Assembly: GCA_964505555.1 (NCBI GenBank) | Contig: CAZDIO010000102.1 | Coordinates: 13,355-77,354 of the forward strand | DNA from: an uncultured Bdellovibrionales bacterium | GTDB lineage: Bacteria; Bdellovibrionota_C; UBA2361; SZUA-149; CAZDIO01 | Reading direction: 5' to 3' | DNA: 64,000 nt | Part shown: in pieces, positions 33,064 through 54,457 of the stretch | Layout: each line of letters begins with the position of its first letter | How positions within the stretch are numbered: the first letter of the stretch is position 1 | Translations under genes and position numbers: made by a program | Notes under the pieces: generated by a model | The model's input: only the letters and a program-made list of their open reading frames with translations | Database searches by the model: none | Told to the model about the DNA's origin: nothing

Positions 33064-33126
33064 TTGAACACAGAGTTTCACAGGGTTACACAGAGTAAAG
33101 ATTTTAAAATTCAACTCTGTGTTCAA
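33064..33126. repeat. Family A palindromic repeat, copy A1 (right arm shortened)
   Basis: ttgaacacagagtttcacagggttacacagagt aaagattttaaaattca actctgtgttcaa. The right arm lacks the internal gtaaccctgtgaaactct present in other copies. Confidence 0.8.
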
Positions 33127-33171
33127 ATAAGATCGGAATGACCTTAGAGCTACCTTCATATTTCTTATTCA

Positions 33172-33408
33172 TTATATCCACTCTTTCATCAGTCGTTTGA
33201 TCTGACTCTGATACGGCACATTTTGTAGATCACATTTATGCCGAAACGCAGCAAGAAGGGTCTGGGGAATTTTTATACTAATGAGTTTACTCTTTTCTGG
33301 CCGTTCATTCATGAGCCGAAAATCTTCAAGAAAACGTGCTATTTCATCCGGAGAGAGCTTCTTTGAATGATGAAGATACTCTTTAGAAAAAAACTGAACA
33401 CTTTTCAT
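33172..33408 (-). CDS. BrnA-like ribbon-helix-helix antitoxin-family protein
   Basis: 78 aa. C-terminus ISIKIPQTLLAAFRHKCDLQNVPYQSQIKRLMKEWI resembles the BrnA/CopG-type RHH antitoxin C-terminus. Confidence 0.55.
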   Translation of the reverse strand: MKSVQFFSKEYLHHSKKLSPDEIARFLEDFRLMNERPEKSKLISIKIPQTLLAAFRHKCDLQNVPYQSQIKRLMKEWI

Positions 33409-33414
33409 CTCTTC

Positions 33415-33882
33415 TTACTCTCTACTTAATTCTTGTAGCGCTTCAATATCGGCGAGATCTTGTGGTCGACCCGCTTCTTGTTTCATTCGAATAAGATCTG
33501 ACAATGAAAGAAGGGAGATACTTGTTTGCTGAACCCGAACACGTTTTGTTCTTTGGGTCGAAAGATCATGGGTAATAATGATGTCAACAAGCTCTGCTGG
33601 AGTACGCGGATTTACAAAACTCCATGCAGTAAGGTTTCGATTCTTAATGTACTCCTTTCGAAATTTAAACACCTCTTTGGCGGTGATCGGAAGCTTTGCT
33701 TGAAGGCCGATACTATTTAGCGCCGCTTCCGCCTTTATAAACTGCTCCTCTTCAAAACGAAGAATAATGTCAATGTCGAGCGTTCCTCGTACCGCCCCAT
33801 GAAGAGATACGGCATATCCACCAACAAGTGCATACTTAACGTGGTTCGTATCTAAGGCCTTAATAACGCTTAAAAGAAACAT
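33415..33882 (-). CDS. Nucleotidyltransferase-fold protein (Pol-beta superfamily), putative TA-system partner
   Basis: 155 aa. GGYAVSLHGAVRGTLDIDIIL (GS/GG...D.D NTase signature). 6-nt gap to the downstream RHH gene. Confidence 0.55.
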   Translation of the reverse strand: MFLLSVIKALDTNHVKYALVGGYAVSLHGAVRGTLDIDIILRFEEEQFIKAEAALNSIGLQAKLPITAKEVFKFRKEYIKNRNLTAWSFVNPRTPAELVDIIITHDLSTQRTKRVRVQQTSISLLSLSDLIRMKQEAGRPQDLADIEALQELSRE

Positions 33883-33997
33883 GGTATATACTAGTATATA
33901 CCTAGAGCGTTATTAATACAATGCTTATTTTTTTGCTCCGTTATTTAGTTTAAATCCCATAACAAGGTAGCTGTACGGTATTTCATAAGGGGGTTTT

Positions 33998-34882
33998 ATG
34001 TCACGTTTTGCAGCGCTTCGCGCTATTGCTACGTCTGCGGGGGTAGACGGTCCAGGCACCTATCTTCCAAAAGTAATAGAGAAAATTCCGAGAGATCAAT
34101 TACACCTTCCAAATGCAGCGAGCGTCTCAGATCAAAGCGAACCAAATAATACCGAACAAAAAAGCATCATTGAGTGGAATAAAACCCCTCCTCCTGTTGT
34201 CGCTCAAGAAAACGTAAGAGGGGGTATCGAAATCGGGGCTGGTGAGGATCTTCAAAATCCGCAGGTATCTAATAAAGTCGCCACCGCCCAAAAAGCTTTA
34301 GCTCGTGTAAATGAAGTGCAAAAAGAGATCTGGTCAAATGCCCACCTCTGGAGCTCTCTTCCTAACGTTGATGATTTTAAAGAGAGAAGTTCTCAACAGA
34401 TTCAACAATTAACAAATGGCCTTACTAGTCCTGATCTCAGTGGGGTGTTTGCCGATTTAAATCAATCGGTACAGGAGAAGGCAAATAGGATTGAGCTCCG
34501 TCTAAAACAACTTGGAGTTGATCCAGCTGAGGCCGGTCATTGTAAGGAGCTGTTCTTAACAGTCGATCCGTTAAGTGGCTTTGCTAAAAACCTCCCGCAA
34601 GATAGCGCGGGACTAAAACAACAGTTGTCTCTAATGACCCCTGACTCAAGGCGGCTAGCCCTTCAAGCTTGGGTATCTAAAGAAACTGCAAAAGCACTCG
34701 AGCCAGTTGTGGGAAGGGAAAACTCTGCGCGGATTGAAACGATCTTACATCAACTGAGTTTTGAAGTTGATCGTTCGCTCGGACAGGTAGCAGCAACAAT
34801 TGCAGTTCGTCGAGAGTTTCCTGCTCAGACGCCCCATTTCATAACGAATGACGCGGTAAACCAGATGTGGGGAAAAAAGTAG
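33998..34882 (+). CDS. Hypothetical soluble protein (no TM, no signal peptide, Q/S-rich)
   Basis: 294 aa. RBS-like AGGGGG upstream. No recognisable domain. Confidence 0.45.
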   Translation: MSRFAALRAIATSAGVDGPGTYLPKVIEKIPRDQLHLPNAASVSDQSEPNNTEQKSIIEWNKTPPPVVAQENVRGGIEIGAGEDLQNPQVSNKVATAQKALARVNEVQKEIWSNAHLWSSLPNVDDFKERSSQQIQQLTNGLTSPDLSGVFADLNQSVQEKANRIELRLKQLGVDPAEAGHCKELFLTVDPLSGFAKNLPQDSAGLKQQLSLMTPDSRRLALQAWVSKETAKALEPVVGRENSARIETILHQLSFEVDRSLGQVAATIAVRREFPAQTPHFITNDAVNQMWGKK

Positions 34883-35117
34883 CGCGGGAATGAATAGTAG
34901 TAAACCGGACCGTTTTAAGTTTGCAAGAACTTGTCTTTCTGTCGTTGCGATACCTAAAGTGGAACTGCTCTAGTCACATCTTATGAAAAATCAAAATTAC
35001 TTAATTACAGGAGACACATGTAGATAAAAAACAGCCATAACTATTAATGAAAGTTGATGATGTAAAGGTTACCAGTTACGAAAATTTTCGTAACCATAAT
35101 TTAGTAGGGGGAGATAT

Positions 35118-35306
35118 ATGAGACAGTTAATTAGCGCCTTTGTTCTCTTAAGCATGTTGATAGCGTTTTGTACTTCAAACGCTTTTGCGGCACATATTAG
35201 AGAAGAAACTTATTGCGTAAAGGATCTGGGGTGTTTTTCATGCATGGTGTCAGGCTTTATTGATAATCAGACAGGACGCATCATTGGTGGATGCTATCCT
35301 CTGTAG
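35118..35306 (+). CDS. Small secreted Cys-rich peptide (signal peptide + ~38-aa mature peptide with 5 Cys)
   Basis: MRQLISAFVLLSMLIAFCTSNAFA|AHIREETYCVKDLGCFSCMVSGFIDNQTGRIIGGCYPL. Strong RBS GGGGGAG 6 nt upstream. Confidence 0.45.
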   Translation: MRQLISAFVLLSMLIAFCTSNAFAAHIREETYCVKDLGCFSCMVSGFIDNQTGRIIGGCYPL

Positions 35307-35387
35307 ATTGTCAAAAAGAAAGCGTGTAGCGAACTGCCAAAAAAAACAGCGCCAGCTCTTTGAGGTCGCTGACGTTTCCTGAGATCA

Positions 35388-36614
35388 CTACATCCGAGAA
35401 ACCATTGCCTCAGCAAACCCTGAGCAGGACACCTCGGTCGGTTTCTCCATTCCTCGGGCAAGGTCGTATGTGACGATCCCCTCCCCGATTGTTTTAGCAA
35501 AGGAATCCTCAATAAGTTTTCCAACCTCTGTCCACCCAAGATGCTCAAACATCATCTTCCCAGAGAGCATTAACGAACCGGGGTTGACCTTATCCTTTCC
35601 TGCATACTTCGGAGCAGTACCGTGCGTTGCTTCAAAAATGGAGGCTTCAACACCGATATTTGCTCCCGGTGCAAGACCAAGTCCTCCAACTTGAGCAGCA
35701 AGTGCGTCAGAGAGATAATCTCCATTTAAGTTCGTGGTGGCGATTACTGAATAGTCCTTCGGTCGGGTTTGAACCTGTTGAAACATGTTATCTGCGATAC
35801 AGTCCTTAATGAGGATCTTCCCTGGTGGCACAGCTCCGTTATGATTTTTGTTTACCTCTTCTTCTGAGATCGTAAAGGGAGCAAACTTCTCTTTTGCAAG
35901 TTTATACCCCCACTCACGAAACCCTCCTTCGGTAAACTTCATAATATTACCTTTGTGAACAAGGGTAACACTGGTGCATCTCATCGCCACCGCATACTCA
36001 ATGGCCATCGCAATTAATCTTTTTGAACCAAACTCACTAATCGGTTTAATCCCTATCGCACTCCCCTCTCGAATTTTTTTCCCTGAGATCTCTTCAATAG
36101 TTTGTGCGAGTTTTTTTGCCTCAGCGCTTCCGGCCTGAAATTCAATCCCCGCATAGACATCTTCTGTGTTTTCGCGAAAGACGATCATGTTTACATCTTG
36201 AGGACGTTTTGCTGGACTAGGCACTCCAGGAAAATATCGAATTGGCCGCACACAAGCGTAGAGATCAAGAACTTGACGAAGCGTTACATTAATTGAACGC
36301 ACCCCTCCCCCAACCGGTGTTGTGAGCGGACCTTTGATCGCAACTTTGTGTTCCTTAATGGCTGTTAAGGTATCATCTGGAAGCCAATTCCCGGTTTGAT
36401 TAAAGGATTTCTCTCCTGCAAGAATCTCAACCCAGGTAACTGATCTCTTTCCTTGAAAGGCACGTTTTATTGCAGCATCAAACACCATCTGTGAAGCTCG
36501 CCACACATCGGGTCCAACCCCGTCCCCTTCAATGTATGGGATCAGCACCTGGTCAGGAACTCGCAACTTCCCTCCCTCACCAAGTGTTATTTTCTGTGCG
36601 CTTCCTTCAGCCAT
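35388..36614 (-). CDS. icd: NADP-dependent isocitrate dehydrogenase
   Basis: 408 aa. Conserved IDH blocks: GDGVGPDV; the isocitrate/Mg site [27 protein letters not shown]; GTAPKYAG. Confidence 0.9.
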
Positions 36615-36657
36615 GAATTCTCCTTTCCAAGAGCGGTGCTAAGTTTTATCAGCCCCG

Positions 36658-38235
36658 CTAAACGCTACGATTCCTTTCTCGTTTTCTTTTCCAAGTTTCA
36701 AAGTCTACTACCGCAATTTTTTTTGCAAGCTCCTCACGAACACATCCTTCAACCGCTTCATGAAGACTTCTTCGATCAAGAGCGGTTTTTAAGCAGTTCA
36801 TCTTCTTTTCAACCTGATCATAGAGGTTTGAAAGAGACTCAGAAGAGAGTGTTTTTCGATAGCGATCGACTTCGGTAGAGAGGTATTCCTGATACTCTTT
36901 TTTCTCAACTGGATTGGCCTCTCCCCGCCCGCTAGAGATTGGGGCTTTTGGAAAGTCCCGCCCAGTATTTTTAAGGATTTTCTCTTCAAAACTCCGGGGA
37001 ATAATGAATTTATGTGGAGTTTCTACTGCCCGATAGAGAAAACCTACCCGATTTTTTGAGACTTTCGTATCATTTGTTTGCACAAGAAAATCGTAATAGG
37101 AGATGATTTTATCAACTTGTAAAAGTTCTGCGGCGTTTTTTTCACTGAGCAGCCGTTTTGCTTGCGAGAGATGAATGCCTCGCGAAAGCAGAGCTTCAAT
37201 GGCTCCTTGTCGTTGTGATTCTAGATCAGTAGAACTGCGTTGGGAGGAATCTTTTTGAAAAACAGGGGGCGAAGAAAGGATAAAGCTTCCTTGCTGCGTG
37301 TGATTTCTAGGAAGAGGGCTCTCTGTTTGCTGGAGATGTTTTTGAGATACGATCTCTTTTCCGGAATGAAAGCGCACAACGGTCTCTACGCCCCTACCTG
37401 CAAACTCATAACTTGAGAGAAACCCAAGCGCTTTTAACTCCTCGCACGCTGGTTCAATTTGTTGCTTAATCTGGGAGATGTATTGATAACTTCGAGAAAG
37501 TCCTAACTTCTCAAAGGCAAAGGTAACAAGTGGTTTTTCAATACTTGATTTGTAGTAAAAATGCTTATCAAGATACCGGTAGAGCCTTCGACTTACAGCA
37601 CTTCGAAGTGAGAAATAAAGGGTTAAATCAAGCTTTTTTATAAACCCTGATTTAAAAGAATGAAAAAGTGCCTCACTCCAAATAAAATAACTCTTTGAAG
37701 CCTCAGCCCCAGAGAGGGCTTTGTTCCCTCGCCCATCGTTTATTTCGTAGGCATCGATAATTCCGAAATTTCTTGTTTGATAGGCTTTTGAAGCATTATC
37801 AAAAAACGCATTTGCTGCCCGAATTCGAACCCCGCTTAAGCGATCAAGTGATTTTGTAAGGCGGGAGTAGCTTCGCCCTTCTGTGGTCCAGCGTAAGATT
37901 CCTAAAAGCTCATACCGGGTAAAATATACCTTTCGGTTTCGAAACCCTTGATCCATCGTTAACCGCATCAAGCCAAGAAGGACATCATCATCCGTAGCGG
38001 TGGGGAGTCCAAACTTGTCTGCCCCGGTAATAATCCACTGGCGTTCAATCACCTCCCCACTGGGGAGCCGTTGGTTGTCACGAAACTCAAGGGTTTTTAC
38101 CTTTGAGTTTGTGCGTGTCGAGAGAACCGCGAGGGGAAACTCTGCAAGGTTCATCTCATCACGTGAGGTAAGCACTACCTCGGATGAGGAGACTTCACGA
38201 TCTTCGGCTCTTTGTTGGTAGAGGGTTTGCTGCAT
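36658..38235 (-). CDS. Replication-initiator-like (RepA-type) protein
   Basis: 525 aa. N-terminus MNLAEFPLAVLSTR... resembles plasmid replication initiator A family N-termini. Basic C-terminus. Lies next to an AT-rich noncoding region and parAB. Assignment tentative. Confidence 0.4.
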   Translation of the reverse strand: MQQTLYQQRAEDREVSSSEVVLTSRDEMNLAEFPLAVLSTRTNSKVKTLEFRDNQRLPSGEVIERQWIITGADKFGLPTATDDDVLLGLMRLTMDQGFRNRKVYFTRYELLGILRWTTEGRSYSRLTKSLDRLSGVRIRAANAFFDNASKAYQTRNFGIIDAYEINDGRGNKALSGAEASKSYFIWSEALFHSFKSGFIKKLDLTLYFSLRSAVSRRLYRYLDKHFYYKSSIEKPLVTFAFEKLGLSRSYQYISQIKQQIEPACEELKALGFLSSYEFAGRGVETVVRFHSGKEIVSQKHLQQTESPLPRNHTQQGSFILSSPPVFQKDSSQRSSTDLESQRQGAIEALLSRGIHLSQAKRLLSEKNAAELLQVDKIISYYDFLVQTNDTKVSKNRVGFLYRAVETPHKFIIPRSFEEKILKNTGRDFPKAPISSGRGEANPVEKKEYQEYLSTEVDRYRKTLSSESLSNLYDQVEKKMNCLKTALDRRSLHEAVEGCVREELAKKIAVVDFETWKRKRERNRSV

Positions 38236-43717: not shown

Positions 43718-43781
43718 TCCAAGTAAACACCTGTTTCTCTCTAGGGCGGGTTGGCTAAAGTACGTCGGGCTGTTTTTTTAA

Positions 43782-43869
43782 TGAACACAGAGTTTCACAG
43801 AGATCCACAGAGTAAAGAAAAAAGCTTTTAGATTTAACTCTGTGTAACCCTGTGAAACTCTGTGTTCAA
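43782..43869. repeat. Family A palindromic repeat, copy A2 (left arm variant agatc for ggtta)
   Basis: tgaacacagagtttcacagagatccacagagt aaagaaaaaagcttttagattta actctgtgtaaccctgtgaaactctgtgttcaa. Confidence 0.85.
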
Positions 43870-44020: not shown

Positions 44021-45376
44021 ATGATCGTTACTGATTCACCATTTCGCACGCAATATAGCGCCAATAACGTTGCAATTCGAAACGGAGCAACAAGTACTAC
44101 GCCGGCGCAATTTAGTAATCTTTCTTTTCTTCGATCGACACCACCTTCTTTACCTTCAAGCAATCTCCTTGCCCCATCAAGTAGCGGAGGATTTGTTTCT
44201 CAAGTGCAGTCGATGCTGCAGCAAGTTTCGGTGCTGATGGATCTCATCGGTGCCGCAAGACAATCAGATCAAAGTGCTGGGGTTAGTCTCCTCGATGGGG
44301 CGAAACTCTTTTCTCAAAATGTTTCTCAGGAGCTTTTTAACCTTCAGACAAGAGGAGGTATCGGAGGGGTTTTTGATGCTGTTCCGACCTCTATAGATAG
44401 TCTTGGTACTGCCGCTCAACAGTACGTTCTTGGGAACCTCAAGCGAGAGTTTTTTGACGCAGTTGGTGAGGCGTTTGGGGTGGATGTTTCACAGCTTTCT
44501 GTAACAGATCTTGCCAATTTGGCTTATGAAAGCGTTTTTGGAGAGGGAACATCGCTCTCTAGTACCCTCTCAGATGGGGTGGCAGGAATCTTCTCCGGTC
44601 AGGATCCCTTTGTAGCAGGAGAACTTAGTGGAGAAATTGGTGGAGAAATAAGCACTGAAGTAGGCGGGGCAACTTCAGGAATTGGCCAATTTACAGGCGC
44701 TTTAGCAACCGCGTATTCTCTCTATGGAATAATTAATGACTGGGGAAAGAGCACCCCAGCCATGGGTGCGATGCGAGGTGCTACGGCTGGAGCGTACATC
44801 GGGAGTATTATTCCAGGAGTTGGAACTCTTATCGGAGGTGCCATCGGTGGGGTTGCGGGGGCGATCTCTGGATTGTTTCATAGTGGGAAGCATAAAAACC
44901 AGATTCAACGCGATCAGGTTCGAGAGTTTTTAAGAAATGCCCAAATTATCGATTCAGATAACTCCCTTCAGTTAGCAAATGGTGAACGTTTTGATATCGG
45001 AAAAGATGGAGGTGCTCGCTATCTTGGACTTGACGGAGTTGAGAGACGACCCTACGTGACTGACCCTTCAAATCCACTTACCGCTGAGGCGATAGGGCTT
45101 GTAAATCCGTTAGCAATAATTCTCACCGGAGGTGATCCTGGACTTTCTTCAGCTTTTGCAGGGTATTTTAGTAATGCCATCGTCAGTAACGCACAAGATC
45201 TCGAAGGCGTCCGCCAAAATGCCTTGGCGATATTCTCAAAATTTCAGGTTACCCCAGAGCAATTGATCGCTGGCTTAGAAAATCTTACTGCCTCCGGCAA
45301 AATCCCCCCAGAAGATTTTGCTGCATACGCAAACGGGGTAAGAACTCTCCTTGAAGGGTTTTCTTCACCTTCATAA
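44021..45376 (+). CDS. Hypothetical protein with central glycine-zipper hydrophobic segment; candidate secreted/translocator-like protein
   Basis: 451 aa, no signal peptide. Ser/Thr-rich N-terminus. Segment AGAYIGSIIPGVGTLIGGAIGGVAGAISGLF (GxxxG repeats). Flanked by family A repeats. Confidence 0.5.
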   Translation: MIVTDSPFRTQYSANNVAIRNGATSTTPAQFSNLSFLRSTPPSLPSSNLLAPSSSGGFVSQVQSMLQQVSVLMDLIGAARQSDQSAGVSLLDGAKLFSQNVSQELFNLQTRGGIGGVFDAVPTSIDSLGTAAQQYVLGNLKREFFDAVGEAFGVDVSQLSVTDLANLAYESVFGEGTSLSSTLSDGVAGIFSGQDPFVAGELSGEIGGEISTEVGGATSGIGQFTGALATAYSLYGIINDWGKSTPAMGAMRGATAGAYIGSIIPGVGTLIGGAIGGVAGAISGLFHSGKHKNQIQRDQVREFLRNAQIIDSDNSLQLANGERFDIGKDGGARYLGLDGVERRPYVTDPSNPLTAEAIGLVNPLAIILTGGDPGLSSAFAGYFSNAIVSNAQDLEGVRQNALAIFSKFQVTPEQLIAGLENLTASGKIPPEDFAAYANGVRTLLEGFSSPS

Positions 45377-45390
45377 GAAGCGTTAGATTA

Positions 45391-45479
45391 TTGAACACAG
45401 AGTTTCACAGGGTTACACAGAGTTTGAACTATCTTACTTATCCCACACTCTGTGTAACCCTGTGAAACTCTGTGTTCAA
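45391..45479. repeat. Family A palindromic repeat, copy A3 (followed by ccttccttttttgc extension)
   Basis: ttgaacacagagtttcacagggttacacagagt ttgaactatcttacttatcccac actctgtgtaaccctgtgaaactctgtgttcaa, then ccttccttttttgc. Confidence 0.9.
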
Positions 45480-45546
45480 CCTTCCTTTTTTGCTCAAAAA
45501 GTTTAAAAACATCTTTACTGCTATATCGAATAGTGATATTAATCTA

Positions 45547-45732: not shown

Positions 45733-46026
45733 ATGTTGAAACCTAGGCGTGTTATAGCAGTGCATCCTGGAGAGATGCTTGAAGAGGTTCTTAAACAGAA
45801 CAAGATTAGCCAATCTTCCCTTGCCGCTCATCTCGGAGTTACTCAAGCAAAGATCAACGAAATCTGTCGTGGTAAGCGAGGAGTGACGCCAGATATGGCG
45901 ATGAAGTTCGGTAAAGCTTTTGGACAGAGCCCAATGTTTTGGATAAATATCCAAAAAAATTGGGAGATGAGCCAGCTCGATGAATCTGATTACAAAGACA
46001 TACAACGGATAAAATGTCGTGCGTAG
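45733..46026 (+). CDS. higA: HigA-family antitoxin (XRE-type HTH)
   Basis: 97 aa. HPGEMLEEVLKQNKISQSSLAAHLGVTQAKINEICRGKRGVTPDMAMKFGKAFG matches the HigA/VapI HTH. Confidence 0.85.
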   Translation: MLKPRRVIAVHPGEMLEEVLKQNKISQSSLAAHLGVTQAKINEICRGKRGVTPDMAMKFGKAFGQSPMFWINIQKNWEMSQLDESDYKDIQRIKCRA

Positions 46027-46142
46027 AAAGCAAGTAAAAGGATTTTACTGGACTTCTGCTGATGCACGGCGACTGCATTTGCTCTCTATTTGAATCCCGA
46101 CTGAGGATCTGGAGAGTTTTATTAAATTACAGCTTATGATTA

Positions 46143-46232
46143 TTGAACACAGAGTTTCACAGGGTTACACAGAGTGTGGGAATAATTAAGATAATTTAAA
46201 CTCTGTGTAACCCTGTGAAACTCTGTGTTCAA
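46143..46232. repeat. Family A palindromic repeat, copy A4 (followed by ccttccctttttgc extension)
   Basis: ttgaacacagagtttcacagggttacacagagt gtgggaataattaagataatttaa actctgtgtaaccctgtgaaactctgtgttcaa, then ccttccctttttgc. Confidence 0.9.
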
Positions 46233-46482
46233 CCTTCCCTTTTTGCCTGTGGGCATGTGGAGTTACCGATTGCTCTAAGAAAAATCATTGATGAAGGCCA
46301 ATTAAGCTGAGGCAAATTGCCTCAGTAGATTCAAAATGCATCAGCGATCATTATTCTAACCCTCTGAAACTGTTCAGATCTTCTTTCACACCAAAGTTGG
46401 CATGACCTTGCAATAGAAACGGTAGGTTCTTGCTACAGGTTCTTTTTGTTTTTTAGTCAGAAAACTTAGCAAGGAGGACTTT

Positions 46483-47196
46483 GTGGTGAAAGGGACAACG
46501 GAAAAATTAACTGAAGAGCAGATTCCCCTCGTAATTGAAAATATTCTTTATGCAAAAAAACTGGCGAGGCAGTTTTATCAACAACGAAGCCACTTCGGTT
46601 TCGATGTTGAGGATTTTGAAGGCGCAGCATTGTTTGGATTATGTGACGCTGCAAGGAGGTTTGAGCCTGATAAGACACTTCATTTTAGAACATTTTCCTA
46701 TTTTCGCATTCGGGGTGCGATGTATGATCTGCTGCGACATGGGGGGGGAATTTCGAAGAAACACTTCAAGTGTTTCATTGAAAATCGAAATCAAACGGGA
46801 GAGGGGACAAAACCTCGAGCAGAGGAAGAAGGGAGCCTCCCCTATTCATTTGCAAGAACTGCTGAGGAGTTATCGAGCATTATTGCCACGATTGAAGAGA
46901 TCGATATCGCTGTGCATGTCAGCACGGACAGCGAGATTCCTGAACTCAGCTACGCACGAGACCTAAATCCTGAAGAGATCAATACCATTCGTGCAACCCG
47001 GTCCTATATTAGAAAACTTATCTCTCAACTTCCCACTGAACAACGAACCGTAATTGAACTTCGCTACTACAATGGCGCTACCTTTGATGAAATTAGCGCA
47101 AATCTCGGTGGGCACTCACGGAGTTGGGTTTCACGAACCCATGTTCGAGCTCTTGATAATTTGCGAGGGATGATTCTTAGCGAAAGGAGAGTGTAA
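46483..47196 (+). CDS. Sigma-70-family sigma factor, FliA/sigma-28-like
   Basis: 237 aa. Region 2 (FEGAALFGLCDAARRFEPDKTLHFRTFSYFRIRGAMYD) and region 4 HTH (VIELRYYNGATFDEISANLGGHSRSWVSRTHVRALDNLR). RBS AAGGAGGA. Stop overlaps the sctJ start (TAATG). Confidence 0.8.
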   Translation: MVKGTTEKLTEEQIPLVIENILYAKKLARQFYQQRSHFGFDVEDFEGAALFGLCDAARRFEPDKTLHFRTFSYFRIRGAMYDLLRHGGGISKKHFKCFIENRNQTGEGTKPRAEEEGSLPYSFARTAEELSSIIATIEEIDIAVHVSTDSEIPELSYARDLNPEEINTIRATRSYIRKLISQLPTEQRTVIELRYYNGATFDEISANLGGHSRSWVSRTHVRALDNLRGMILSERRV

Positions 47197-48131
47197 TGAC
47201 ATCCTCAAAATGGAAAGGAATTTTTCTTGCGCTCGTAGCGTTTTTTCAGGTCAGTTGTAAAGAGACCGTTCTTCATAACTTAGATGAGGTGCGAGCCAAT
47301 CAGGTAAAAGTAACACTAGAGAAACGAGGAATTACTGCGCAAAAGCTTTTTGAAGGGAGCGGATGGAGTATTCGAGTCAAGCGTGCTGACGAAACAGAGG
47401 CACTCTCGATTCTTGAAGAAAGCAGAGTTCTCAAACGGAATCTCCGAACCCCGATAGAACCACCAAAGGGGCTTATTCCAAGCCGAGAGGAACGAGCATC
47501 ATTTTCAGAACGGCAACTGGCGGCAAGTTTAGAAAGTACTCTTGAGCGCTTACCCTATGTGCTAGAAGCTCGAGTTCATCTGAACTTAAATGCCGAAGAG
47601 AACCTTCAAATGGTTTTGCCAAAAGAGGGCCATACGGGAAGTGCTCTGATTGTCACCGATGATCATATGCCTGATCATTTAGCAATTCAAAAATCTCAAG
47701 TACAACAACTCATTGCAGGAGCATCAGGAGTAAACCCACAATCAATCTCGGTAGTAATCGCCAAAGCAAGTGCTGAAAACTACGCAGAGCCACAGATCCA
47801 TAAAGTAGCAAAGCCAGTAGAGACGACGAAAAAAGATACTCCCTCCCATTCTCCATCGTGGATAAAAAAGCTGATAGTGCATGCTCGACAGTATCAAACA
47901 TTTTTAATCTATCTCGCTGGGGTATTAATTGCAGTTCTTGCACTCCGATTGATTTTTCGAAAAAACCCATTTCGAAGTGAGCAAACAATACCGAGTTTTC
48001 AAATGCCTCCTCTGAAGAACTCAAAAAATACCGTCTCCTCTGGTGTTCTGGTCAACGGTACCCAACACGGAAATGGCAGTCAGTTTAAACTGCAACCAAA
48101 CAAACAACATGAAACATTGGAGGTGTACTAA
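47196..48131 (+). CDS. sctJ: Type III secretion inner-membrane ring lipoprotein SctJ (YscJ/PrgK/CdsJ family)
   Basis: 311 aa. Signal plus Cys (FFQVSCKE), then LDEVRANQVKVTLEKRGITAQKL...ETEALSILEESRV (YscJ-like secretin/ring-building motif pair). Single C-terminal TM (FLIYLAGVLIAVLALRLIF). Confidence 0.75.
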   Translation: MTSSKWKGIFLALVAFFQVSCKETVLHNLDEVRANQVKVTLEKRGITAQKLFEGSGWSIRVKRADETEALSILEESRVLKRNLRTPIEPPKGLIPSREERASFSERQLAASLESTLERLPYVLEARVHLNLNAEENLQMVLPKEGHTGSALIVTDDHMPDHLAIQKSQVQQLIAGASGVNPQSISVVIAKASAENYAEPQIHKVAKPVETTKKDTPSHSPSWIKKLIVHARQYQTFLIYLAGVLIAVLALRLIFRKNPFRSEQTIPSFQMPPLKNSKNTVSSGVLVNGTQHGNGSQFKLQPNKQHETLEVY

Positions 48132-48132
48132 G

Positions 48133-48408
48133 ATGATGGCTTCTTCTTTAAATATCCATTGCTCACGGCGATGTGAATTGCTTCTCTGCTTAAGTTATCT
48201 CCTTACCCCAGAAGCAGTTACTTCCATCGCCTCAAAATTAGCAACCAATCGCGATCAAGCCGCGAGAAACCTTGCTCAGGCGATGATGTCACTCTCTCCT
48301 CAGTATGTACGAGACCTGAGTTTAAAAACACTTGCCAATGCCGGAATGAGTATCGGTAATTATAAAAACCAAACGCATGCTCACGGGGTAGCCTCGAGGA
48401 AGTTGTAA
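48133..48408 (+). CDS. Small T3SS-locus protein (hypothetical)
   Basis: 91 aa from ATG immediately after the sctJ stop. The longer ORF from 48043 overlaps sctJ. No motif. Confidence 0.3.
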   Translation: MMASSLNIHCSRRCELLLCLSYLLTPEAVTSIASKLATNRDQAARNLAQAMMSLSPQYVRDLSLKTLANAGMSIGNYKNQTHAHGVASRKL

Positions 48409-48409
48409 A

Positions 48410-49333
48410 ATGAAAGAGAACGACAACAATACGTTTGTTGCTGTAATCAGAGCAAAACTTCAAGCAGGGGGGCGCACTCTCGCATCAACGGAAAATGCAC
48501 CACTGCATACACTACGATTTCGGATGATGGCAAATCAATTTCTCTCTATTCTTTCTTCGTTACTTTCTTTACATCTTACAAAGGAAGTTCATATCTCACT
48601 TGATGAGTCATCAACCTTTCCTCGATCACCTGAAGAGGGGTGCGATGGAGAACAGGTGATCGTGAATCTTCGAGTGTATCATCAAAATATACAACTTGTT
48701 TTACCCGGAGAGCTTGTTCATGACCTTGGTGCTTACGTCCTTCATAAGATGCCAACAGCGGTAATCTCTTCTCTCACGAACGAAGAGATTACCGCTGTGA
48801 GTTTCTTAATCGCTTCAGTCCTTGCTGATCGAGCGCTCTCGAAACAACGAATCTACCTCTCTTCAGTGCACAAAAAATGTAACGAAGAAAAACAAGAGAC
48901 CTCAAAACGCGATCGAGAACAAAATCAGCAACTCTGTGTATCAGCCACGGTTGATAAGAGTCACTACCGAGTGCTCGTACGTATCCCCGAGGAGCTTGTT
49001 GGGCGTTTAGAAAGTTATGGGAAATTAATCTTTCATAGGGAACAAACAACACGTCTTCTTTCAAGGGTGTTTGCGCAGTGGTCGCTGCAACTTCGACTCA
49101 ACGTAGGATCGCTTCACGGTCTTACTGCGCTAAAAGAAGGTCAACGTTTTCCACTTACAGAGTCTACGGGGGCACTTTTTTCTCCAAGCCCTCTCTGTGG
49201 TGAAGAAGGGGTAGCGGTTGAAATACTTTCTGCAAGTATTCCTGGACTTTTAAAATTACGAATTAGGGGAGAAAAAGATTTATATCAACGCACTCAATGG
49301 AGGAATAATGACCAGAGAAGATGCCCACAGTAA
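48410..49333 (+). CDS. sctQ: SctQ-like protein, N-terminal part of a split cytoplasmic-ring/sorting-platform protein (contains a SpoA-like C-terminal segment)
   Basis: 307 aa. C-terminal LQLRLNVGSLHGLTALKEGQRFPL...VAVEILSASIPGLLKLRI fits the SpoA/FliN-fold pattern. Overlaps the next SpoA gene by 26 nt. Confidence 0.45.
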   Translation: MKENDNNTFVAVIRAKLQAGGRTLASTENAPLHTLRFRMMANQFLSILSSLLSLHLTKEVHISLDESSTFPRSPEEGCDGEQVIVNLRVYHQNIQLVLPGELVHDLGAYVLHKMPTAVISSLTNEEITAVSFLIASVLADRALSKQRIYLSSVHKKCNEEKQETSKRDREQNQQLCVSATVDKSHYRVLVRIPEELVGRLESYGKLIFHREQTTRLLSRVFAQWSLQLRLNVGSLHGLTALKEGQRFPLTESTGALFSPSPLCGEEGVAVEILSASIPGLLKLRIRGEKDLYQRTQWRNNDQRRCPQ

Positions 49334-49673
49334 TGAATTGTTTAGAGAATTTACAAATCACCATACCCAGACGATGAACCAAAATGGGGAATCGGCTCGT
49401 GAAATAAAGCGAGAAAGCGGCTCATTGCTTACATTGCAGCAAGCAAAATTTCTTTCAGAGATACAGGTTGGGCTTGATGTCGAGATCGGAAAACTCTCCA
49501 TCCCAGCAGATAAACTCATTGATCTCCTTCCTGGGCAAACATTTGAGTTTGAGTTTGATCCGCTTCTAGAGGTTTCGCTCTCACTGGGAGGAGAAAAGAT
49601 AGCAAAAGCTAAATTCATGCTTGATGGAGAGACGCTCTATCTTGAAGTGAGCTCAGTAAAAACCACTTTATGA
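49308..49673 (+). CDS. SpoA/FliN/SctQ-C domain protein (separate C-terminal SctQ gene)
   Basis: 121 aa. VGLDVEIGKLSIPADKLIDLLPGQTFEFEFDPLLEVSLSLGGEKIAKAKFMLDGETLYLEV is the classic SpoA domain. Confidence 0.7.
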   Translation: MTREDAHSNELFREFTNHHTQTMNQNGESAREIKRESGSLLTLQQAKFLSEIQVGLDVEIGKLSIPADKLIDLLPGQTFEFEFDPLLEVSLSLGGEKIAKAKFMLDGETLYLEVSSVKTTL

Positions 49674-49768
49674 CAAAACCGATCGGAAACCATTGATGGA
49701 AATAAACGATAATACGTACGAGACCTAAAAACTGTTGTGAATTAATTGAATTAATAAGGAGAAATAAC

Positions 49769-50071
49769 ATGTCAGATGTAGCCTCGGCGCTTTTTAATAT
49801 CGGAAGTGTTGTGCGTGAAACCGCAAGTTACTTACCAGAACCTGCAACGCAAGGCGTTAGTATGTTTTCTGACGTTATGGATATCGTAAAAAGCCTCACC
49901 GGTAATGGTGTTGGTGGAGTTCCTACCGAGATCGGCGGGGACTTTATGGAACTTCTTGAATTGCAGATTCAAACTCAGCTTGAGCTTCAGACGGTATCAA
50001 TGGTGTCAAACGTTGAGAAGTCTGAACACGAATCAAAGATGGCTGCGATTCGAAACGTTCGCGTAAACTAA
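49769..50071 (+). CDS. Small T3SS-associated protein, needle/inner-rod (SctF/SctI)-like candidate
   Basis: 100 aa, helical. C-terminus ...KMAAIRNVRVN. Position between sctQ and sctV. RBS AAGGAGA. Confidence 0.3.
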   Translation: MSDVASALFNIGSVVRETASYLPEPATQGVSMFSDVMDIVKSLTGNGVGGVPTEIGGDFMELLELQIQTQLELQTVSMVSNVEKSEHESKMAAIRNVRVN

Positions 50072-50099
50072 AACAAGAAAATTAGATTGGAGAAATACT

Positions 50100-50417
50100 A
50101 TGGCCGTATCAAGTGTAACCACCGCTGCACCTCAAACAGCCGAAGGAAAAGCAGCAAAGAGTGAAGGTGAAGATAAAAAGGAGCGCACCTCTCAGGTGAA
50201 CCAATGGGGAAAAGAGATCCTTGATTTAAAAACCTCAAATGCGCGTCTTCTTGAGATCGTTGAAGCAGCAACAAAAGAGGCAAATGATAGCCCCTGGGTG
50301 ATGAACATGATTGAAAAGTTCATCGGTCAACGGGCGGTAAAGGGTGCCGCTGTTTCAAACATGATTCAAGCAATCATGGAAACGATGAAACGAATCGCTA
50401 ATAATATTGGGCGTTAG
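50100..50417 (+). CDS. Small T3SS-associated protein, needle/inner-rod (SctF/SctI)-like candidate
   Basis: 105 aa. C-terminus VSNMIQAIMETMKRIANNIGR resembles needle-family C-termini (…IIQNFR-like). RBS GGAGAAA. Confidence 0.3.
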   Translation: MAVSSVTTAAPQTAEGKAAKSEGEDKKERTSQVNQWGKEILDLKTSNARLLEIVEAATKEANDSPWVMNMIEKFIGQRAVKGAAVSNMIQAIMETMKRIANNIGR

Positions 50418-50428
50418 TTTCTGATTCC

Positions 50429-52507
50429 ATGAGGCAGCACGCCAAAATACGCGATATTTTACTCCCTATCGCTGTTGTTGCGGTAGTAGGGATGATGATT
50501 TTTCCTTTACCATCAGGAGTGCTCGATGCGCTCCTGATGGTAAATATCGCGTTTTCTTTAGTTCTTCTGGTAAGTTCTGTTTATCTTTCTGAACCAAGAC
50601 ACTTTACCTCCCTTCCAGCGATCCTTCTCCTCTCCACTCTTTTTCGCTTAGGATTAAACGTTTCAACAACACGACAGATTCTTGGTCATGCCGAGGCACC
50701 TGAGATTATTGTTGCCTTTGGTTCTTTTGTTGTAACTGGAAGTTTAATTGTCGGTGCGGTGGTATTTTTGATTATCACCGTAGTGCAGTTTCTAGTGATC
50801 ACCAAGGGGGCAGAGAGAGTTGCTGAGGTTGCCGCGAGATTTACCCTCGATGCGATGCCTGGAAAACAGATGGCGATTGATGCTGATGTGCGTTCAGGTT
50901 CCATTAGTGTTGAAGAGGCAAAGGAGCGAAGGCTTGAATTACAACAGGAATCAAAACTCTACGGTGCCCTTGATGGGGCGATGAAGTTTATCAAAGGGGA
51001 CGCAATTGCTGGTTTGATCATCATCGTTATTAATATCACCGCAGGCCTTGCTGTGGGGGTAACACAGATGGGGCTTAGTTTTTCAGAGGCTCTTCATAAG
51101 TACACCCTCTATACGATTGGTGATGGCCTTGTTTCACAACTTCCGGCACTTCTTGTCTCTGTGGCAGCGGGGATTGTAATTACCAGGGTTGAAAATAAAA
51201 GTGGGGCTTTTCTCGGAAGAGATATCTTTGTTCAACTCGGTGCAGAACCTCAAGCCGTGGCCACCAGTGGAGGAGTGCTTCTTCTTCTCTCACTTGTTCC
51301 TGCGTTGCCAGGAATTCCTTTTTTTGTTGTTGGGGTAATTCTTCTTTCTCTTGCAAGAAAGACAAGTCTTCGACAGAAAAGCTCTGAACAGGGAAGGACA
51401 GATTCAGAGTTTCGACCAAAGGTATTTTCTCCACTCGTTTTAGTTCTCTCCCCCGGAGCTGCCGTTCTTCTTCAACGGCTCGGCACCCTTCCCAAGGCGA
51501 TTCATCAATTACGAAGCGAGATGTTTCAAAAATGGGGGGTGATTGTTCCCGATGTCCAATTTGATCTAGAAAAAGGGGAGAGTGAGATCGCTCTCTGGGT
51601 TACTCTTCATGGAGTGCAAGTTGATTCGCTTCGTGGAGATGAAAAAGATTCTGGAGTTTTTGTTGAGAAAACTATTCAATGCTTACAACAGTCCATTGAA
51701 GCTCATCTTTCTGAACTCATCGATGATACGCAAACAAGAATGCTTCTTGAGGTTCATCAAAGCGTTGCCGAGGATCTGATCAATAGTGTCATTCCTGAGA
51801 TGTTGAGTATTACGGCGCTCACGACAATTCTTCGGCAGTTAGTTATTGAGGGGATCCATATTCGTCAGATGCGTTCGATCCTCCAAGCCGTAGCAGAATC
51901 TCATCTTCGCGAGCAGGAGATGAGCCTTTCACTCCCGAGTGCTTCCGGTGCAAATTCACAACGTCTGCAACTTTTAGGGAAGAAAGAAGGAGCGACAAGG
52001 CAAGGACGAGAGCTCCTTGCTGATGTGAGAATCTCTTTAAAGCGAGTTATTTCAAAACAGATCACGGATGATAATTGGAATTTACAAGCCTTCATCTGTG
52101 CGCCTCTTTTGGAACAGATATTTTCCTCTCCCGTTGCCCTTGGAGCGCCCATTGAACCGGGAATACGTGAAAGCATTTTGAATCAGATTAATAAAGCATT
52201 CTCTACACAAAATACCCCCACAAAAGTTCTCTTAACTTCTAAACAGTCACGAACAAATCTCTTCAACCTGATTCGTTTTGACTGTCCAATGGTCTCAGTT
52301 ATCGCAATTGATGAGCTGGCTCCTGAAGTGACGCTCAGTATTCTTGGGGAGATAAAATTAGAAACTGGAGAGACAGCAGACAGTGAGGAGCAGGAAGGGG
52401 GCAAGAGTAAGAAGATTCAGGAAGAGACTCAAGCTAAACCGGAGCGGAGAGTTTTTCGAAATGTTTCTGAAGTGAGAACAAAAGATTCTCAGAAGATCGC
52501 AGCATAA
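50429..52507 (+). CDS. sctV: Type III secretion export-gate protein SctV (LcrD/InvA/CdsV family; injectisome-type rather than FlhA)
   Basis: 692 aa. FLVITKGAERVAEVAARFTLDAMPGKQMAIDAD, AMKFIKGDAIAGLIIIVIN and TIGDGLVSQLPALL match the LcrD/YscV variants (SLDAMPGKQM, FVKGDAIAGLIII, GDGMVSQVPALL) more closely than the FlhA variants (VLDGMPGKQM, FVRGDAIAGILIM). Confidence 0.85.
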   Translation: MRQHAKIRDILLPIAVVAVVGMMIFPLPSGVLDALLMVNIAFSLVLLVSSVYLSEPRHFTSLPAILLLSTLFRLGLNVSTTRQILGHAEAPEIIVAFGSFVVTGSLIVGAVVFLIITVVQFLVITKGAERVAEVAARFTLDAMPGKQMAIDADVRSGSISVEEAKERRLELQQESKLYGALDGAMKFIKGDAIAGLIIIVINITAGLAVGVTQMGLSFSEALHKYTLYTIGDGLVSQLPALLVSVAAGIVITRVENKSGAFLGRDIFVQLGAEPQAVATSGGVLLLLSLVPALPGIPFFVVGVILLSLARKTSLRQKSSEQGRTDSEFRPKVFSPLVLVLSPGAAVLLQRLGTLPKAIHQLRSEMFQKWGVIVPDVQFDLEKGESEIALWVTLHGVQVDSLRGDEKDSGVFVEKTIQCLQQSIEAHLSELIDDTQTRMLLEVHQSVAEDLINSVIPEMLSITALTTILRQLVIEGIHIRQMRSILQAVAESHLREQEMSLSLPSASGANSQRLQLLGKKEGATRQGRELLADVRISLKRVISKQITDDNWNLQAFICAPLLEQIFSSPVALGAPIEPGIRESILNQINKAFSTQNTPTKVLLTSKQSRTNLFNLIRFDCPMVSVIAIDELAPEVTLSILGEIKLETGETADSEEQEGGKSKKIQEETQAKPERRVFRNVSEVRTKDSQKIAA

Positions 52508-52528
52508 TCTTAGCGCGCTGTATGGGAG

Positions 52529-53146
52529 GTGAAAATGAATATATCTTATAGAAAAATCTCTCTTCATCATTTAGCACTCTGGAGTTTTGTCTGTTTCATT
52601 CTTTTCTTGAGTACTGGCTGTATTTACCGAAATAAAAATAGCCTTACGGCTCATGAAGCCGTAACTCGGGAAACAAAGATGAAGTCACTCCTTGCTTTTA
52701 GTGTTTCACAGCTTCGAATCGGAGATGAAGTGGCACTTGATCGCGCCTATGCAACGCTTGAGCTTGCACGAGAGTTAGACCCAAACGATGCACGAGTGTT
52801 TGATGGTTTAGGAAGTGTGGAATGGCGTCGCGAAGGGTATAAGTTAGCGGAGTTCTACTTTAAAAAAGCGGTATCTCTTGATCCTAACTATTCTCGTCCG
52901 TATGCACATCTTTCGCTTGTTGCAGAAAGAAATGGTGATTATCAGGCAGCAAAAGAGCTCCTTCTAAAATCTCTTGAACTTAATCCTCTTAATTACCGGG
53001 CAAGAAACAACTACGCCGCCCTTCTTGTTCGTTACGGAAATCAAACAAGTAATGAACAAACGGCGTACTATGAGTTTCTAAAAGTTGCCCGAGGTGCTTC
53101 AAAAGAAGATCCCGTTCTTCAGTATAATCTAGGTCGGTTTGAGTAG
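52529..53146 (+). CDS. TPR-repeat lipoprotein
   Basis: 205 aa. Signal plus LSTGC lipobox. At least three TPR units (AYATLELARELDPNDARVF..., AEFYFKKAVSLDPNYSRPY..., AKELLLKSLELNPLNYRAR...). Confidence 0.6.
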   Translation: MKMNISYRKISLHHLALWSFVCFILFLSTGCIYRNKNSLTAHEAVTRETKMKSLLAFSVSQLRIGDEVALDRAYATLELARELDPNDARVFDGLGSVEWRREGYKLAEFYFKKAVSLDPNYSRPYAHLSLVAERNGDYQAAKELLLKSLELNPLNYRARNNYAALLVRYGNQTSNEQTAYYEFLKVARGASKEDPVLQYNLGRFE

Positions 53147-53183
53147 GCGTTATCCGTAGTCGCAGGAGGAACCTGATTTTTAA

Positions 53184-53271
53184 TTGAACACAGAGTTTCA
53201 CAGGGTTACACAGAGTAAAGAGAAGAGATTTTAAATTTAACTCTGTGTAACCCTGTGAAACTCTGTGTTCA
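53184..53271. repeat. Family A palindromic repeat, copy A5
   Basis: ttgaacacagagtttcacagggttacacagagt aaagagaagagattttaaattta actctgtgtaaccctgtgaaactctgtgttca. Confidence 0.9.
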
Positions 53272-53329
53272 TACCAGAAGCTAAATGGACCTACTCTAGC
53301 CTTACAATTCAAAACTTGCTAAGTATTCA

Positions 53330-54337
53330 TTGGAAATCCCTCTTCGGATATTTATGCAAGATCCTCAATCAACGATAAATGTTTCTTCAATAGATTACTC
53401 GCCAACGGTAGGGATAGTAATTATCAATTATAACTGCGCTCCTTATACGCTAGACTGCCTGCGCACAGTAGAGAAGCTTTCCTATACAAATTATTTTGTA
53501 GTGATCATTGATAACAACTCCCCAGATCTCTCCGGCTACTACTTACAACAAGCGCTCAAAGATAAGCGGGTAACCGTCATTATCAACCCTGAAAACTGTG
53601 GCTTCGGGGCAGGAAACAATATCGGTATTCGTCATGCGTTAGAAGGGGAGGCAGAGTATATCTGGCTTTTAAATGCAGATACCTTTGTTCATCCTGAGGC
53701 ACTCTCCCAACTTGTAAAACAAGCAAACGAATATCCTGAGGTTGGAGCGTTTGGAAGTAAGGTTCTGTATGAGGAAGAACCTTTGTCTCCTAAAAAAGAA
53801 GAGGGAAAACCGATAATATGGAGTGCTGGAGCCTCGATAGATTTTTCTAAAGAAGAAGTAAAGATGTTTGGTTCCCATGAAGAAGATCGAGGGCAGCACG
53901 ATCAGCTCCGCGAGTGCGAATACATTCCCGGATGCTCACTTTTCTTTCCTGCAAAGGTGATCTCAGAAGTTGGCTACCTGCCGGAAGAATACTTTATGTA
54001 TTTTGAAGAAACAGAGTGGTGTACGAGGATGAGAAAAAAGCATTTCAAACTGCTCTATGTTCCAGAAAGTGTAGTTTGGCACCGGTTTCAAGATAACAAA
54101 ATGCAAACCCCTTTTGGAGTGTATTATTACAACAGAAATAATCGTTACTTCTGGTTTCGTCAGGGAGATATCTTTAAAAAAATCGCGATGATTGTGCGAA
54201 CACTTTTTAAAGACCTTCCCCGTGCACAGAGAGCGTTTAAAAAAGCCCCCGATGAAGCTTCTCGCGAAATCTTCTCTGCTCACCGAGCTAGCTGTCTTGA
54301 TTTTCTTTTTGGGAGGTTTGGGAAGAGACGGTATTGA
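53330..54337 (+). CDS. Glycosyltransferase family 2
   Basis: 335 aa. VGIVIINYNCAPYTLDCL...VVIIDNNSPD, DxD-like NADTF, and GCSLFFPAKV. Start may be downstream of 53330. Confidence 0.8.
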   Translation: MEIPLRIFMQDPQSTINVSSIDYSPTVGIVIINYNCAPYTLDCLRTVEKLSYTNYFVVIIDNNSPDLSGYYLQQALKDKRVTVIINPENCGFGAGNNIGIRHALEGEAEYIWLLNADTFVHPEALSQLVKQANEYPEVGAFGSKVLYEEEPLSPKKEEGKPIIWSAGASIDFSKEEVKMFGSHEEDRGQHDQLRECEYIPGCSLFFPAKVISEVGYLPEEYFMYFEETEWCTRMRKKHFKLLYVPESVVWHRFQDNKMQTPFGVYYYNRNNRYFWFRQGDIFKKIAMIVRTLFKDLPRAQRAFKKAPDEASREIFSAHRASCLDFLFGRFGKRRY

Positions 54338-54379
54338 GTTAAATATTGATATGTTAAATGTTTGCGAGTGTTTTTAGGA

Positions 54380-54457
54380 TGAACACAGAGTTCAACAGAG
54401 GAAAGAAAACAAACCAATAATTTTAACTCTGTGAAACCCTGTGAAACTCTGTGTTCA
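54380..54457. repeat. Family A palindromic repeat, copy A6 (diverged)
   Basis: gaacacagagttcaacagagg aaagaaaacaaaccaataatttta actctgtgaaaccctgtgaaactctgtgttca. Confidence 0.75.

Follow-up and report, generated by a model that had tools for sequence, protein, structure and literature searches.

The window analyzed here, a 64-kb stretch of DNA (43% G+C) from an uncultured Bdellovibrionales bacterium, carries six intergenic hairpins with CACAGAG-type arms (family A, copies A1–A6) and two related hairpins (family B, copies B1 and B2). These hairpins look less like dedicated terminators than like selfish DNA elements of a kind not yet described, because the same arms flank genes for GxxExxY proteins, a family of small nucleases, and occur in at least five phyla. 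On the reading we favor, the six copies together with the two family B copies are non-autonomous members, lacking an open reading frame (ORF), of a foldback family that crosses phyla and whose full form carries a GxxExxY nuclease; we judge this proposal to have an even chance of being correct. Judged from their sequences, the window repeat and the arrays beside GxxExxY genes very probably form one family, and mobility driven by the nuclease is a possible but not a probable extension of that relationship. The original prediction had proposed a dispersed repeat resembling repetitive extragenic palindromic (REP) sequences or MITEs (miniature inverted-repeat transposable elements). That description is borne out, as an intergenic palindromic repeat is present in many genomes, but the spread across phyla and the position of the arms beside GxxExxY genes had been missed.

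The repeat in other genomes and beside GxxExxY genes

Genomes in the GTDB collection were scanned with a pattern in which the terminal 11-mers were fixed and the interior was left free (TGAACACAGAG N{39,69} CTCTGTGTTCA). At least 105 sites were recovered on at least 102 DNA stretches from at least 35 genomes in at least five phyla, compared with a chance expectation of about 1–2 sites (an arithmetic estimate from 22 fixed bases, 31 gap lengths and 596 Gb). Among the matches listed, the hosts are Bacteroidota (Bacteroides, Phocaeicola, Prevotella, Alloprevotella, Saprospiraceae, Spirosoma and Fibrella), Planctomycetota (Tepidisphaerales and Phycisphaerae), Verrucomicrobiota (Limisphaerales), Acidobacteriota (Terriglobus and Bryobacteraceae) and one 'Deltaproteobacteria' metagenome-assembled genome (MAG), and the distribution is patchy across species of one genus. 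Although absent from the search pattern, runs of (N)CAC(A/G)GAG units make up the interior at nearly all sites, with a period of 8 nt in Bacteroidales, 8–9 nt in Saprospiraceae and 10–11 nt in Terriglobus; the termini of these copies are TG...CA. Constrained arms around free loops had been predicted, and the two arms of each copy do co-vary: 77 distinct forms of the inner 16 nt occur among 105 copies, yet their complementarity is 85% within a copy versus 59% between copies. Between convergent genes, a relative of the window organism carries a hairpin built from ACCAC(A/T/G)AAG units.

Metagenomes were scanned with one 20-nt arm word, which gives a sample that is neutral as to arm arrangement. 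Matches came from at least 120 contigs, whose sources were soil, termite gut, human gut, sediment and water. Among the tight hairpins listed, the CACAGAG array comes first in 57 and second in 20, and a further 82 arrays stand alone; a strict polarity, with the CACAGAG arm always 5′, had seemed true in the pattern-selected set and was abandoned in the light of this unbiased one. Window arms and the loci from both scans (L002–L103 and L106–L225) alike consist of two inverted arrays of 2–4 tandem CAC(A/G)GAG units with 1–3 nt spacers. In many metagenome hairpins the cores pair and the spacers do not, so that conservation applies to the core motif no less than to the stem. With the CACRGAG core as its conserved part, the arm is aptly described by the earlier phrase 'protein-binding half-site'.

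At locus L129, 374 nt separate an arm from its inverted partner, and all of this space is taken up by an ORF with a score of 139 bits against TIGR04256, 'GxxExxY protein'. When reverse-complemented, the right arm at this locus (TTGAACACAGAGTTTCACAGAGTCCCACAGAGT) is identical to the window arm at 30 of 33 positions. The loci after L129 were picked only by their GxxExxY protein. CAC/CGC-RGAG arms were found no more than 70 nt from the gene at 9 of 9 independent GxxExxY loci, five of them fully bracketed:

L129: fully bracketed GxxExxY ORF
L236: fully bracketed, in the order ACCACAGAGGGCACAGAGGAACACAGAGG, ATG...TAA, CCCTCTCTGTGTTCCTCTGTGCCCTCTGTGGT; no other arm in 5.4 kb
L246/L247: fully bracketed; one array on each side, none elsewhere
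L256: fully bracketed; CGCAGAG-type arrays abut the start and the stop
L259: fully bracketed; arrays about 70 nt from either end
L226 and L262: tight hairpins directly adjoining the gene
L260: right arm only, an array past the stop
L069: a hairpin abuts the 3′ end of the gene

At L236 the arm stops 1 nt before the ATG and resumes 4 nt past the stop codon. Traces of the arms are also found in protein databases, where over-long GxxExxY ORFs translate them (NTESHRVSQS, NTEFHRGPQS, PLCSSVSSVV, PSASSAVN, ...RPLR*). In a set of 150 diverse representatives, left-arm pentapeptides spanning two consecutive units occur in 16 of 77 N-terminal extensions versus 4% in controls, and reverse-arm peptides in 8 of 49 C-terminal extensions versus 5% in control segments. 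Many database 'proteins' of 240–295 aa consist of two tandem GxxExxY domains (P0241–P0250, P0252, P0256, P0257 and others); these are probably two adjacent genes read through a stop-less arm region.

GxxExxY proteins (TIGR04256; Pfam PDDEXK_3, PF13366) are minimal PD-(D/E)XK nucleases of about 125 aa, and the family comprises 30,583 clusters (50% identity, E up to 0.001). The residues D67 and E77-x-K79 are invariant, and an AlphaFold2 model with a predicted local distance difference test score of 94.5 has the form of a minimal PD-(D/E)XK domain. The best fold matches, all weak, are to Cas4, lambda exonuclease and a splicing endonuclease, with the catalytic domain of I-Bth0305I also among the weak ones. 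Solved structures gave no match by sequence; comparison with defense and phage families gave weak similarity to the Cas4 core only and no PHROG match. The published classification lists the function of GxxExxY as 'Unknown' (PMC3424549). A literature search by sequence strings and key words matched only primers, and it returned no description of repeats flanking GxxExxY genes; five papers touch on GxxExxY in passing.

Hairpin copies in the window

Scanning the window with the 31-nt arm GAACACAGAGTTTCACAGGGTTACACAGAGT gave 10 matches at up to 3 mismatches, every one inside the six sites named in the original prediction, and zero matches in 100 dinucleotide-preserving shuffles of the window. The exact 31-nt arm has no match in the GTDB species collection, and hemB was recovered only from a 1.1-kb Logan contig. 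The predicted build of three units of about 10 nt per arm (GAACACAGAG / TTTCACAGGG / TTACACAGAG) was likewise found. Inverted-repeat detection recovers hairpins at 43782-43868, 45391-45479, 46143-46232, 53185-53271 and 54367-54470, and gives A2–A5 inverted arms of 33–36 nt that are 89–100% complementary, with 17–24 nt in between. The copies are as follows:

A1, 33064..33126: truncated, with a complete left arm (3 units) and only the outer unit of the right arm; loop type 1
A2, 43781..43869: full-length, left arm diverged (3 mismatches); loop type 1; 242 nt past hemB (ALAD)
A3, 45379..45493: full copy, hairpin at 45391-45479 with a 33-bp stem; sub-family flanks GCGTTAGATTA and CCTTCCTTTTTTGC; loop type 2
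A4, 46131..46246: full copy, hairpin at 46143-46232; outer flanks as in A3, loop inverted (flip-flop)
A5, 53184..53272: full copy; loop type 1; between a TPR chaperone-like ORF and a GT2 ORF
A6, 54379..54458: degenerate, inner units of the left arm lost or altered; loop related to type 1
B1, 29228..29312: related hairpin of 8-nt units (AACCACAGAG-ACACAGAG-CCGCAGAG), 43 nt past a + strand ORF
B2, 63092..63192: second copy with 8-nt units, right arm with one extra unit; past a + strand ORF

Families A and B are one superfamily. Stems of A3, A4 and A5 are perfect over 32–33 bp, with RNA minimum free energies (MFEs) of -58 to -59 kcal/mol and z about -13. The imperfect stem of A2 folds at -42 kcal/mol, and the truncated copies A1 and A6 fold weakly (-18 and -26 kcal/mol, respectively) because inner units are gone from one arm. 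Loops had been thought specific to each copy; there are instead two types. Loop type 1 (GTAAAGA...TTTTAAATTTAA) is common to A1, A2, A5 and A6 in a single orientation, and loop type 2 is common to A3 and A4, where it lies in opposite orientations. Despite this inversion the outer flanks of A3 and A4 (left, GATTA; right, CCTTCCYTTTTTGC) have one and the same orientation, and both copies are followed by CCTTCC(T/C)TTTTTGC. The T-run noted earlier after these two hairpins is present there and at no other copy.

Each of the six family A copies begins 15–242 nt past the stop codon of a + strand ORF, as had been claimed. The neighbors are an OsmC-like gene, hemB, a 451-aa ORF, an HTH_3 ORF, a gene for a TPR protein and a GT2 glycosyltransferase gene. 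A1 lies between convergent ORFs, OsmC-like on the + strand and CopG-like on the - strand; A3 begins 15 nt past the stop of ORF 44021-45376; A4 has the HTH_3 ORF on one side and a sigma-factor ORF on the other; and A6 is sited between convergent ORFs.

Several other features lie close to these copies. The HTH_3 (XRE-type) ORF of 97 aa at 45733-46026 (+) sits between A3 and A4, two full hairpins with mutually inverted loops, and may form a cassette with a copy at each end; the opposite strand has a 153-aa ORF as an alternative. Beside A1, at 33172-33882 on the - strand, a CopG-antitoxin-like ORF of 78 aa and a DUF6036 nucleotidyltransferase ORF are likely a toxin-antitoxin pair. An injectisome-like locus at 46483-53146 encodes a sigma factor, SctJ-like YscJ_FliF, SctQ-like FliMN_C, SctV FHIPEP and TPR chaperone-like proteins and is followed by the GT2 gene. 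It is syntenic in two distant relatives (L104 6145-12630 and L105 6284-12488). The best relatives of its SctV/FlhA-type protein are 55–57% identical, and the named ones are MAGs of Bdellovibrionota or Oligoflexia. A chlamydial origin, which the T3SS genes and the 43% G+C had suggested, was rejected on these grounds; the organism resembles Bdellovibrionota or Oligoflexia. Flagellin and a MinD/FlhG-like gene are found elsewhere in the window.

Copying, persistence and alternative explanations

What is copied within a genome exceeds the hairpin and is asymmetric, since flanks and loop are copied too. The Prevotella unit spans about 130 nt; its outer ends are AGTAAGTAT.../...ATACT, TA adjoins it on both sides, and its loop is found in both orientations relative to the flanks, the same flip-flop as in A3 and A4. 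Once in place, hairpins can persist. At an orthologous site in two Prevotella species the hairpin is identical at 65 of 65 positions and the flanks are 81% identical, and in two Spirosoma species the hairpin is 90% identical, with one compensatory change from A-T to C-G and some decay. Hairpins also turn over: at an intergenic site (L011 1990-2050) where two Prevotella species have a CACAGAG hairpin, a third has the unrelated hairpin GTTACGGAGTCATCGCTCC...GGAGCGATGACTCCGTTAAC.

Variation within one species was seen in 15 human-gut contigs (L111, L126, L135, L139, L144, L147, L151, L152, L160, L187, L196, L205, L212, L217 and L219). The left flank and left arm are identical throughout, the right arm has 2 or 3 units, and the contigs fall into three groups with different right-hand sequence, in one of which the loop differs as well. 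Because unit number and right flanks vary, the arrays are seen to slip and the hairpin to be a recombination breakpoint.

Larger arrangements occur. A non-coding repeat of about 430 nt in Prevotella sp. RGIG5970 (L013 4731-5164 and L021 6751-7175; 88% identical) has the hairpin as one of its ends, and several other copies in this genome adjoin 200–700 nt of non-coding DNA. Arm pairs enclose about 290 nt without an ORF at L114 5341-5706 and L204 105-443; the L114 interval contains other REP-like hairpins, e.g. GTAGAGACGTTGCGCGCAACGTCTCTAC, and the loop may therefore be a landing site for other small repeats. At L189 6380-9099, a Bacteroidota-like locus whose array spacers measure 1, 2 and 3 nt from outside to inside, a left and a right array bracket a 2.6-kb gene for an 849-aa protein.

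These patterns can be accommodated by the following scheme. The element would have arms of 2–4 tandem CAC(A/G)GAG units, usually with TGAAC or AACC on the outside, inverted around a free loop, and in the full-length form the 'loop' would be the GxxExxY gene. The arrays would serve as recognition sites of the GxxExxY nuclease, which would probably act as a dimer, either at the inverted arrays or at the extruded hairpin. Cleavage would be followed by repair from another arm-flanked copy, a homing-like gene conversion with the arms of about 30 bp as homology, and such repair would carry elements with the gene and elements with a short loop alike into intergenic DNA. The loop could be inverted by recombination or template switching between perfect arms, slippage between units could truncate an arm, and ectopic recombination between copies could break synteny. 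Taken to its full extent, this scheme would make GxxExxY proteins the nucleases of a cross-phylum class of selfish foldback elements, neither insertion sequence (IS)/MITE nor REP with its associated tyrosine transposase (RAYT). The nuclease would recognize tandem CACRGAG arrays and, through break-induced copying, spread both itself and a large excess of ORF-less hairpins, which would then be recombination hotspots. We regard this broader proposal as rather doubtful.

A number of results weigh against the nuclease-bearing foldback family. ORF-less hairpins far outnumber gene-bearing ones, with 2 GxxExxY genes among more than 300 arms in 1.5 Mb of arm-selected loci; given this rarity, the nuclease could be cargo that prefers hairpins rather than their driver. 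The 64-kb window has no GxxExxY gene by jackhmmer in six frames, so its copies would have to be ORF-less forms, and their loops show no similarity to the ends of the GxxExxY insert, which led us to reject the idea that they are deletion remnants of it. Small ORFs beside arms show no enriched protein family; a recurrent neighbor family was sought by all-against-all BLAST and by Pfam and NCBIfam scans of arm-side ORFs, which gave housekeeping genes only. Neither an empty-versus-filled orthologous site nor a target duplication nor an insertion polymorphism was found at the loci compared, and hairpins are retained across about 20% nucleotide divergence. The nine GxxExxY loci belong mostly to one sub-family, with identity to L129 of at least 62% at all but L069, and across the family at large only a partial arm signal is seen. 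Arm order is reversed in 20 of the 77 metagenome hairpins, and solo arms adjoin ordinary genes, e.g. leuC/leuD, sucC/sucD and adk/obgE. The GxxExxY gene may instead be a passenger that prefers hairpin loops, with arrays that serve an unseen transposase or an RNA-level function.

On the latter view, the hairpin is selected because, when transcribed between cistrons or at gene 3′ ends, it stops transcription, keeps 3′ exonucleases out or serves as a target of RNase III, and arms around GxxExxY genes act like the stems of 23S rRNA intervening sequences, so that the insert is cut from the host transcript. Position and stability speak for it. All eight window copies (A and B) follow a + strand gene, the stems are very stable (MFE to -59 kcal/mol), the hairpins of the two Prevotella species and the compensated base pair in Spirosoma are what a conserved transcript structure would give, and GxxExxY genes lie in operons in the same orientation as their neighbors, with 17–62 nt spacers. 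Location in other genomes is less clear. ORF calls here are naive longest-ORF calls, and several comparisons rest on MAGs. Among the matches listed, copies in the genome sample fall into 33 convergent, 39 tandem and 9 divergent intergenic regions, with 6 inside ORFs, but the tight hairpins of the metagenome sample fall into 6 convergent, 28 tandem and 5 divergent regions, with 6 inside. Copies avoid genes, and divergent regions are avoided only partly. The expectation that they would be intergenic and 3′ of genes therefore largely stands for the first part, while the 3′-end enrichment is uneven (33:9 versus 6:5, convergent to divergent), and the metagenome ratio amounts to no enrichment.

The structure of the copies also fits poorly with a role in RNA. 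A terminator scan calls none of the window copies, so the terminator or mRNA-stability role proposed earlier finds no backing there: four of the six family A copies have no T-run, and in A3 and A4 the T-run begins 6 nt past the 33-bp stem and belongs to the sub-family flank. Most copies elsewhere are likewise without a U-tract, and their flanks often have a T-run upstream and an A-run downstream. Mismatches in the stems show no bias of G-U over A-C on the sense strand (21 versus 17; a small sample). Perfect stems of 33 bp are typically substrates of RNase III, a point against stabilization. A terminator needs no specific core conserved across phyla, and here the core is conserved while the spacers are often unpaired. 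Rfam 15 gave 0 matches in the window; at eight copy-bearing loci it gave only sub-threshold matches of the long stems to eukaryotic microRNA precursors, which therefore mean just 'long hairpin'. We consider a primary function at the RNA level unlikely. The window copies are best explained as passive residents of intergenic DNA, with any effect on transcript 3′ ends secondary.

Somewhat less likely again is an ordinary MITE derived from a DDE insertion sequence, in which the arms are terminal inverted repeats with reiterated transposase sites and GxxExxY genes are passengers. The TG...CA termini, the patchy distribution among congeneric species and the length of the Prevotella unit, which exceeds its hairpin and has TA on both sides, are all in keeping with such an origin. 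Nonetheless, no arm pair flanks or adjoins a transposase in about 1.5 Mb of copy-rich sequence, a limited sample, and the only long-range pair checked (L107, 3.2 kb) encloses ordinary genes and no transposase. Binding by a transposase would not by itself explain co-variation of the arms within a copy. No target duplication could be defined, and direct repeats are not evident at the hairpin ends; nor were there matches in 2.9 million viral contigs or in phage and plasmid collections, where the BLAST low-complexity filter may hide some.

Mobilization of a REP or REPIN sequence by a RAYT (Y1/HUH) transposase is very improbable: an intergenic, high-copy palindromic repeat often found between tandem or convergent genes is REP-like (PMC3733652), but REPs are imperfect palindromes of 20–40 nt whose GTAG (or CGTC) tag stays unpaired (PMC3733652), and here there is no such tag and a single arm is itself no palindrome. 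As originally stated, the window contains no RAYT when searched with 21 RAYT/TIRYT sequences (from the supplement of PMC3733652) and IS608 TnpA. Over all six frames of about 870 kb, that search turned up a single RAYT, which lies 1.1 kb from a hairpin and has its own GTAG REP pair. This is a RAYT-like Y1 ORF of Candidatus Phocaeicola merdavium (L078 5977-6594, - strand) in which the pair TTGTAGGGGCGTATTGCATACGCCC / GGGCGTATGCGATACGCCCCTACAA lies in frame (6166-6262). An association with RAYT or IS200 was rejected, the weak match at L050 being a spurious ORF. Integron attC sites were rejected as well; their consensus has R″(RYYYAAC)...R′(GTTRRRY) boxes and an imperfect stem with extrahelical bases, and the TTGAAC / GTTCAA ends found here misfit the boxes and the stems are perfect.

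Significance and relation to known systems

Few unexplained features of bacterial genomes are as common as small palindromic repeats, and to our knowledge only the REP-RAYT pair has a known enzyme. The present repeat has a core conserved in at least five phyla and is physically tied to one of the largest uncharacterized families of small nucleases; this family, whose sole annotation is 'GxxExxY protein', thereby gains a testable function and a substrate, the arm DNA. Read-through of arms may explain many 'hypothetical' N- and C-terminal extensions and fused tandem ORFs in databases. The hairpins also identify sites at which synteny is broken between strains of a gut bacterium and, if they are indeed recombination hotspots, would reshape genomes. 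A minimal nuclease specific for the arrays could have practical interest. If the link to GxxExxY reflects insertion preference only, the hairpins still mark a widespread safe haven or recombination site.

Of known systems, REP/REPIN-RAYT (Nunvar 2010; Bertels & Rainey 2011; Di Nocera 2013, PMC3733652) is similar in its short, high-copy intergenic palindromes at mostly tandem or convergent sites, in the inverted pairs that form a long hairpin, and in a dedicated nuclease-type gene flanked by the same repeats. In contrast to REPs, the hairpins described here have no GTAG/CGTC tag, their arms are arrays of tandem 8–10 nt units rather than small palindromes, the flanked gene encodes a PD-(D/E)XK protein and not a Y1/HUH transposase, and the core is common to several phyla instead of being confined, like a REP sequence, to one species. 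Bacterial MITEs (Correia/NEMIS, ERIC/IRU, RUP and Nezha) share a length of 60–130 nt, terminal inverted repeats, an AT-rich center, intergenic location and sub-families with lineage-specific flanks. They differ in that no parental IS or target duplication was found for the present repeat, whose arms co-vary and are internally repetitive and whose loop flips.

Foldback (FB) transposons of Drosophila and other eukaryotes have long inverted terminal repeats composed of short tandem sub-repeats, are recombinogenic, and contain a central 'loop' that varies and in some cases encodes protein. The likeness stops at architecture: FB elements are eukaryotic, much larger and encode other proteins. Intervening sequences in the 23S rRNA of Leptospira and Coxiella carry an internal ORF ('S23p', the four-helix-bundle family TIGR02436) bracketed by inverted repeats, and their excision by RNase III has been demonstrated. 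Like the elements described here, they combine a small selfish ORF with bracketing inverted repeats that can form a long transcript stem inside essential transcription units, but the ORF family and the repeats are different and they sit in rRNA.

Cyanobacterial short tandemly repeated repetitive (STRR) sequences are intergenic heptamers of unknown function. Their tandem 7–8 nt units, sometimes in inverted arrays, are similar to those of the present repeat, but the unit sequences and the phylum differ, and we know of no nuclease gene associated with them. Free-standing homing endonuclease genes, including those of the PD-(D/E)XK type, are comparable in that a small nuclease gene lies between host genes with no other mobility gene. 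Known genes of this kind are not flanked by inverted arrays of tandem units, nor are they so vastly outnumbered by copies without an ORF.

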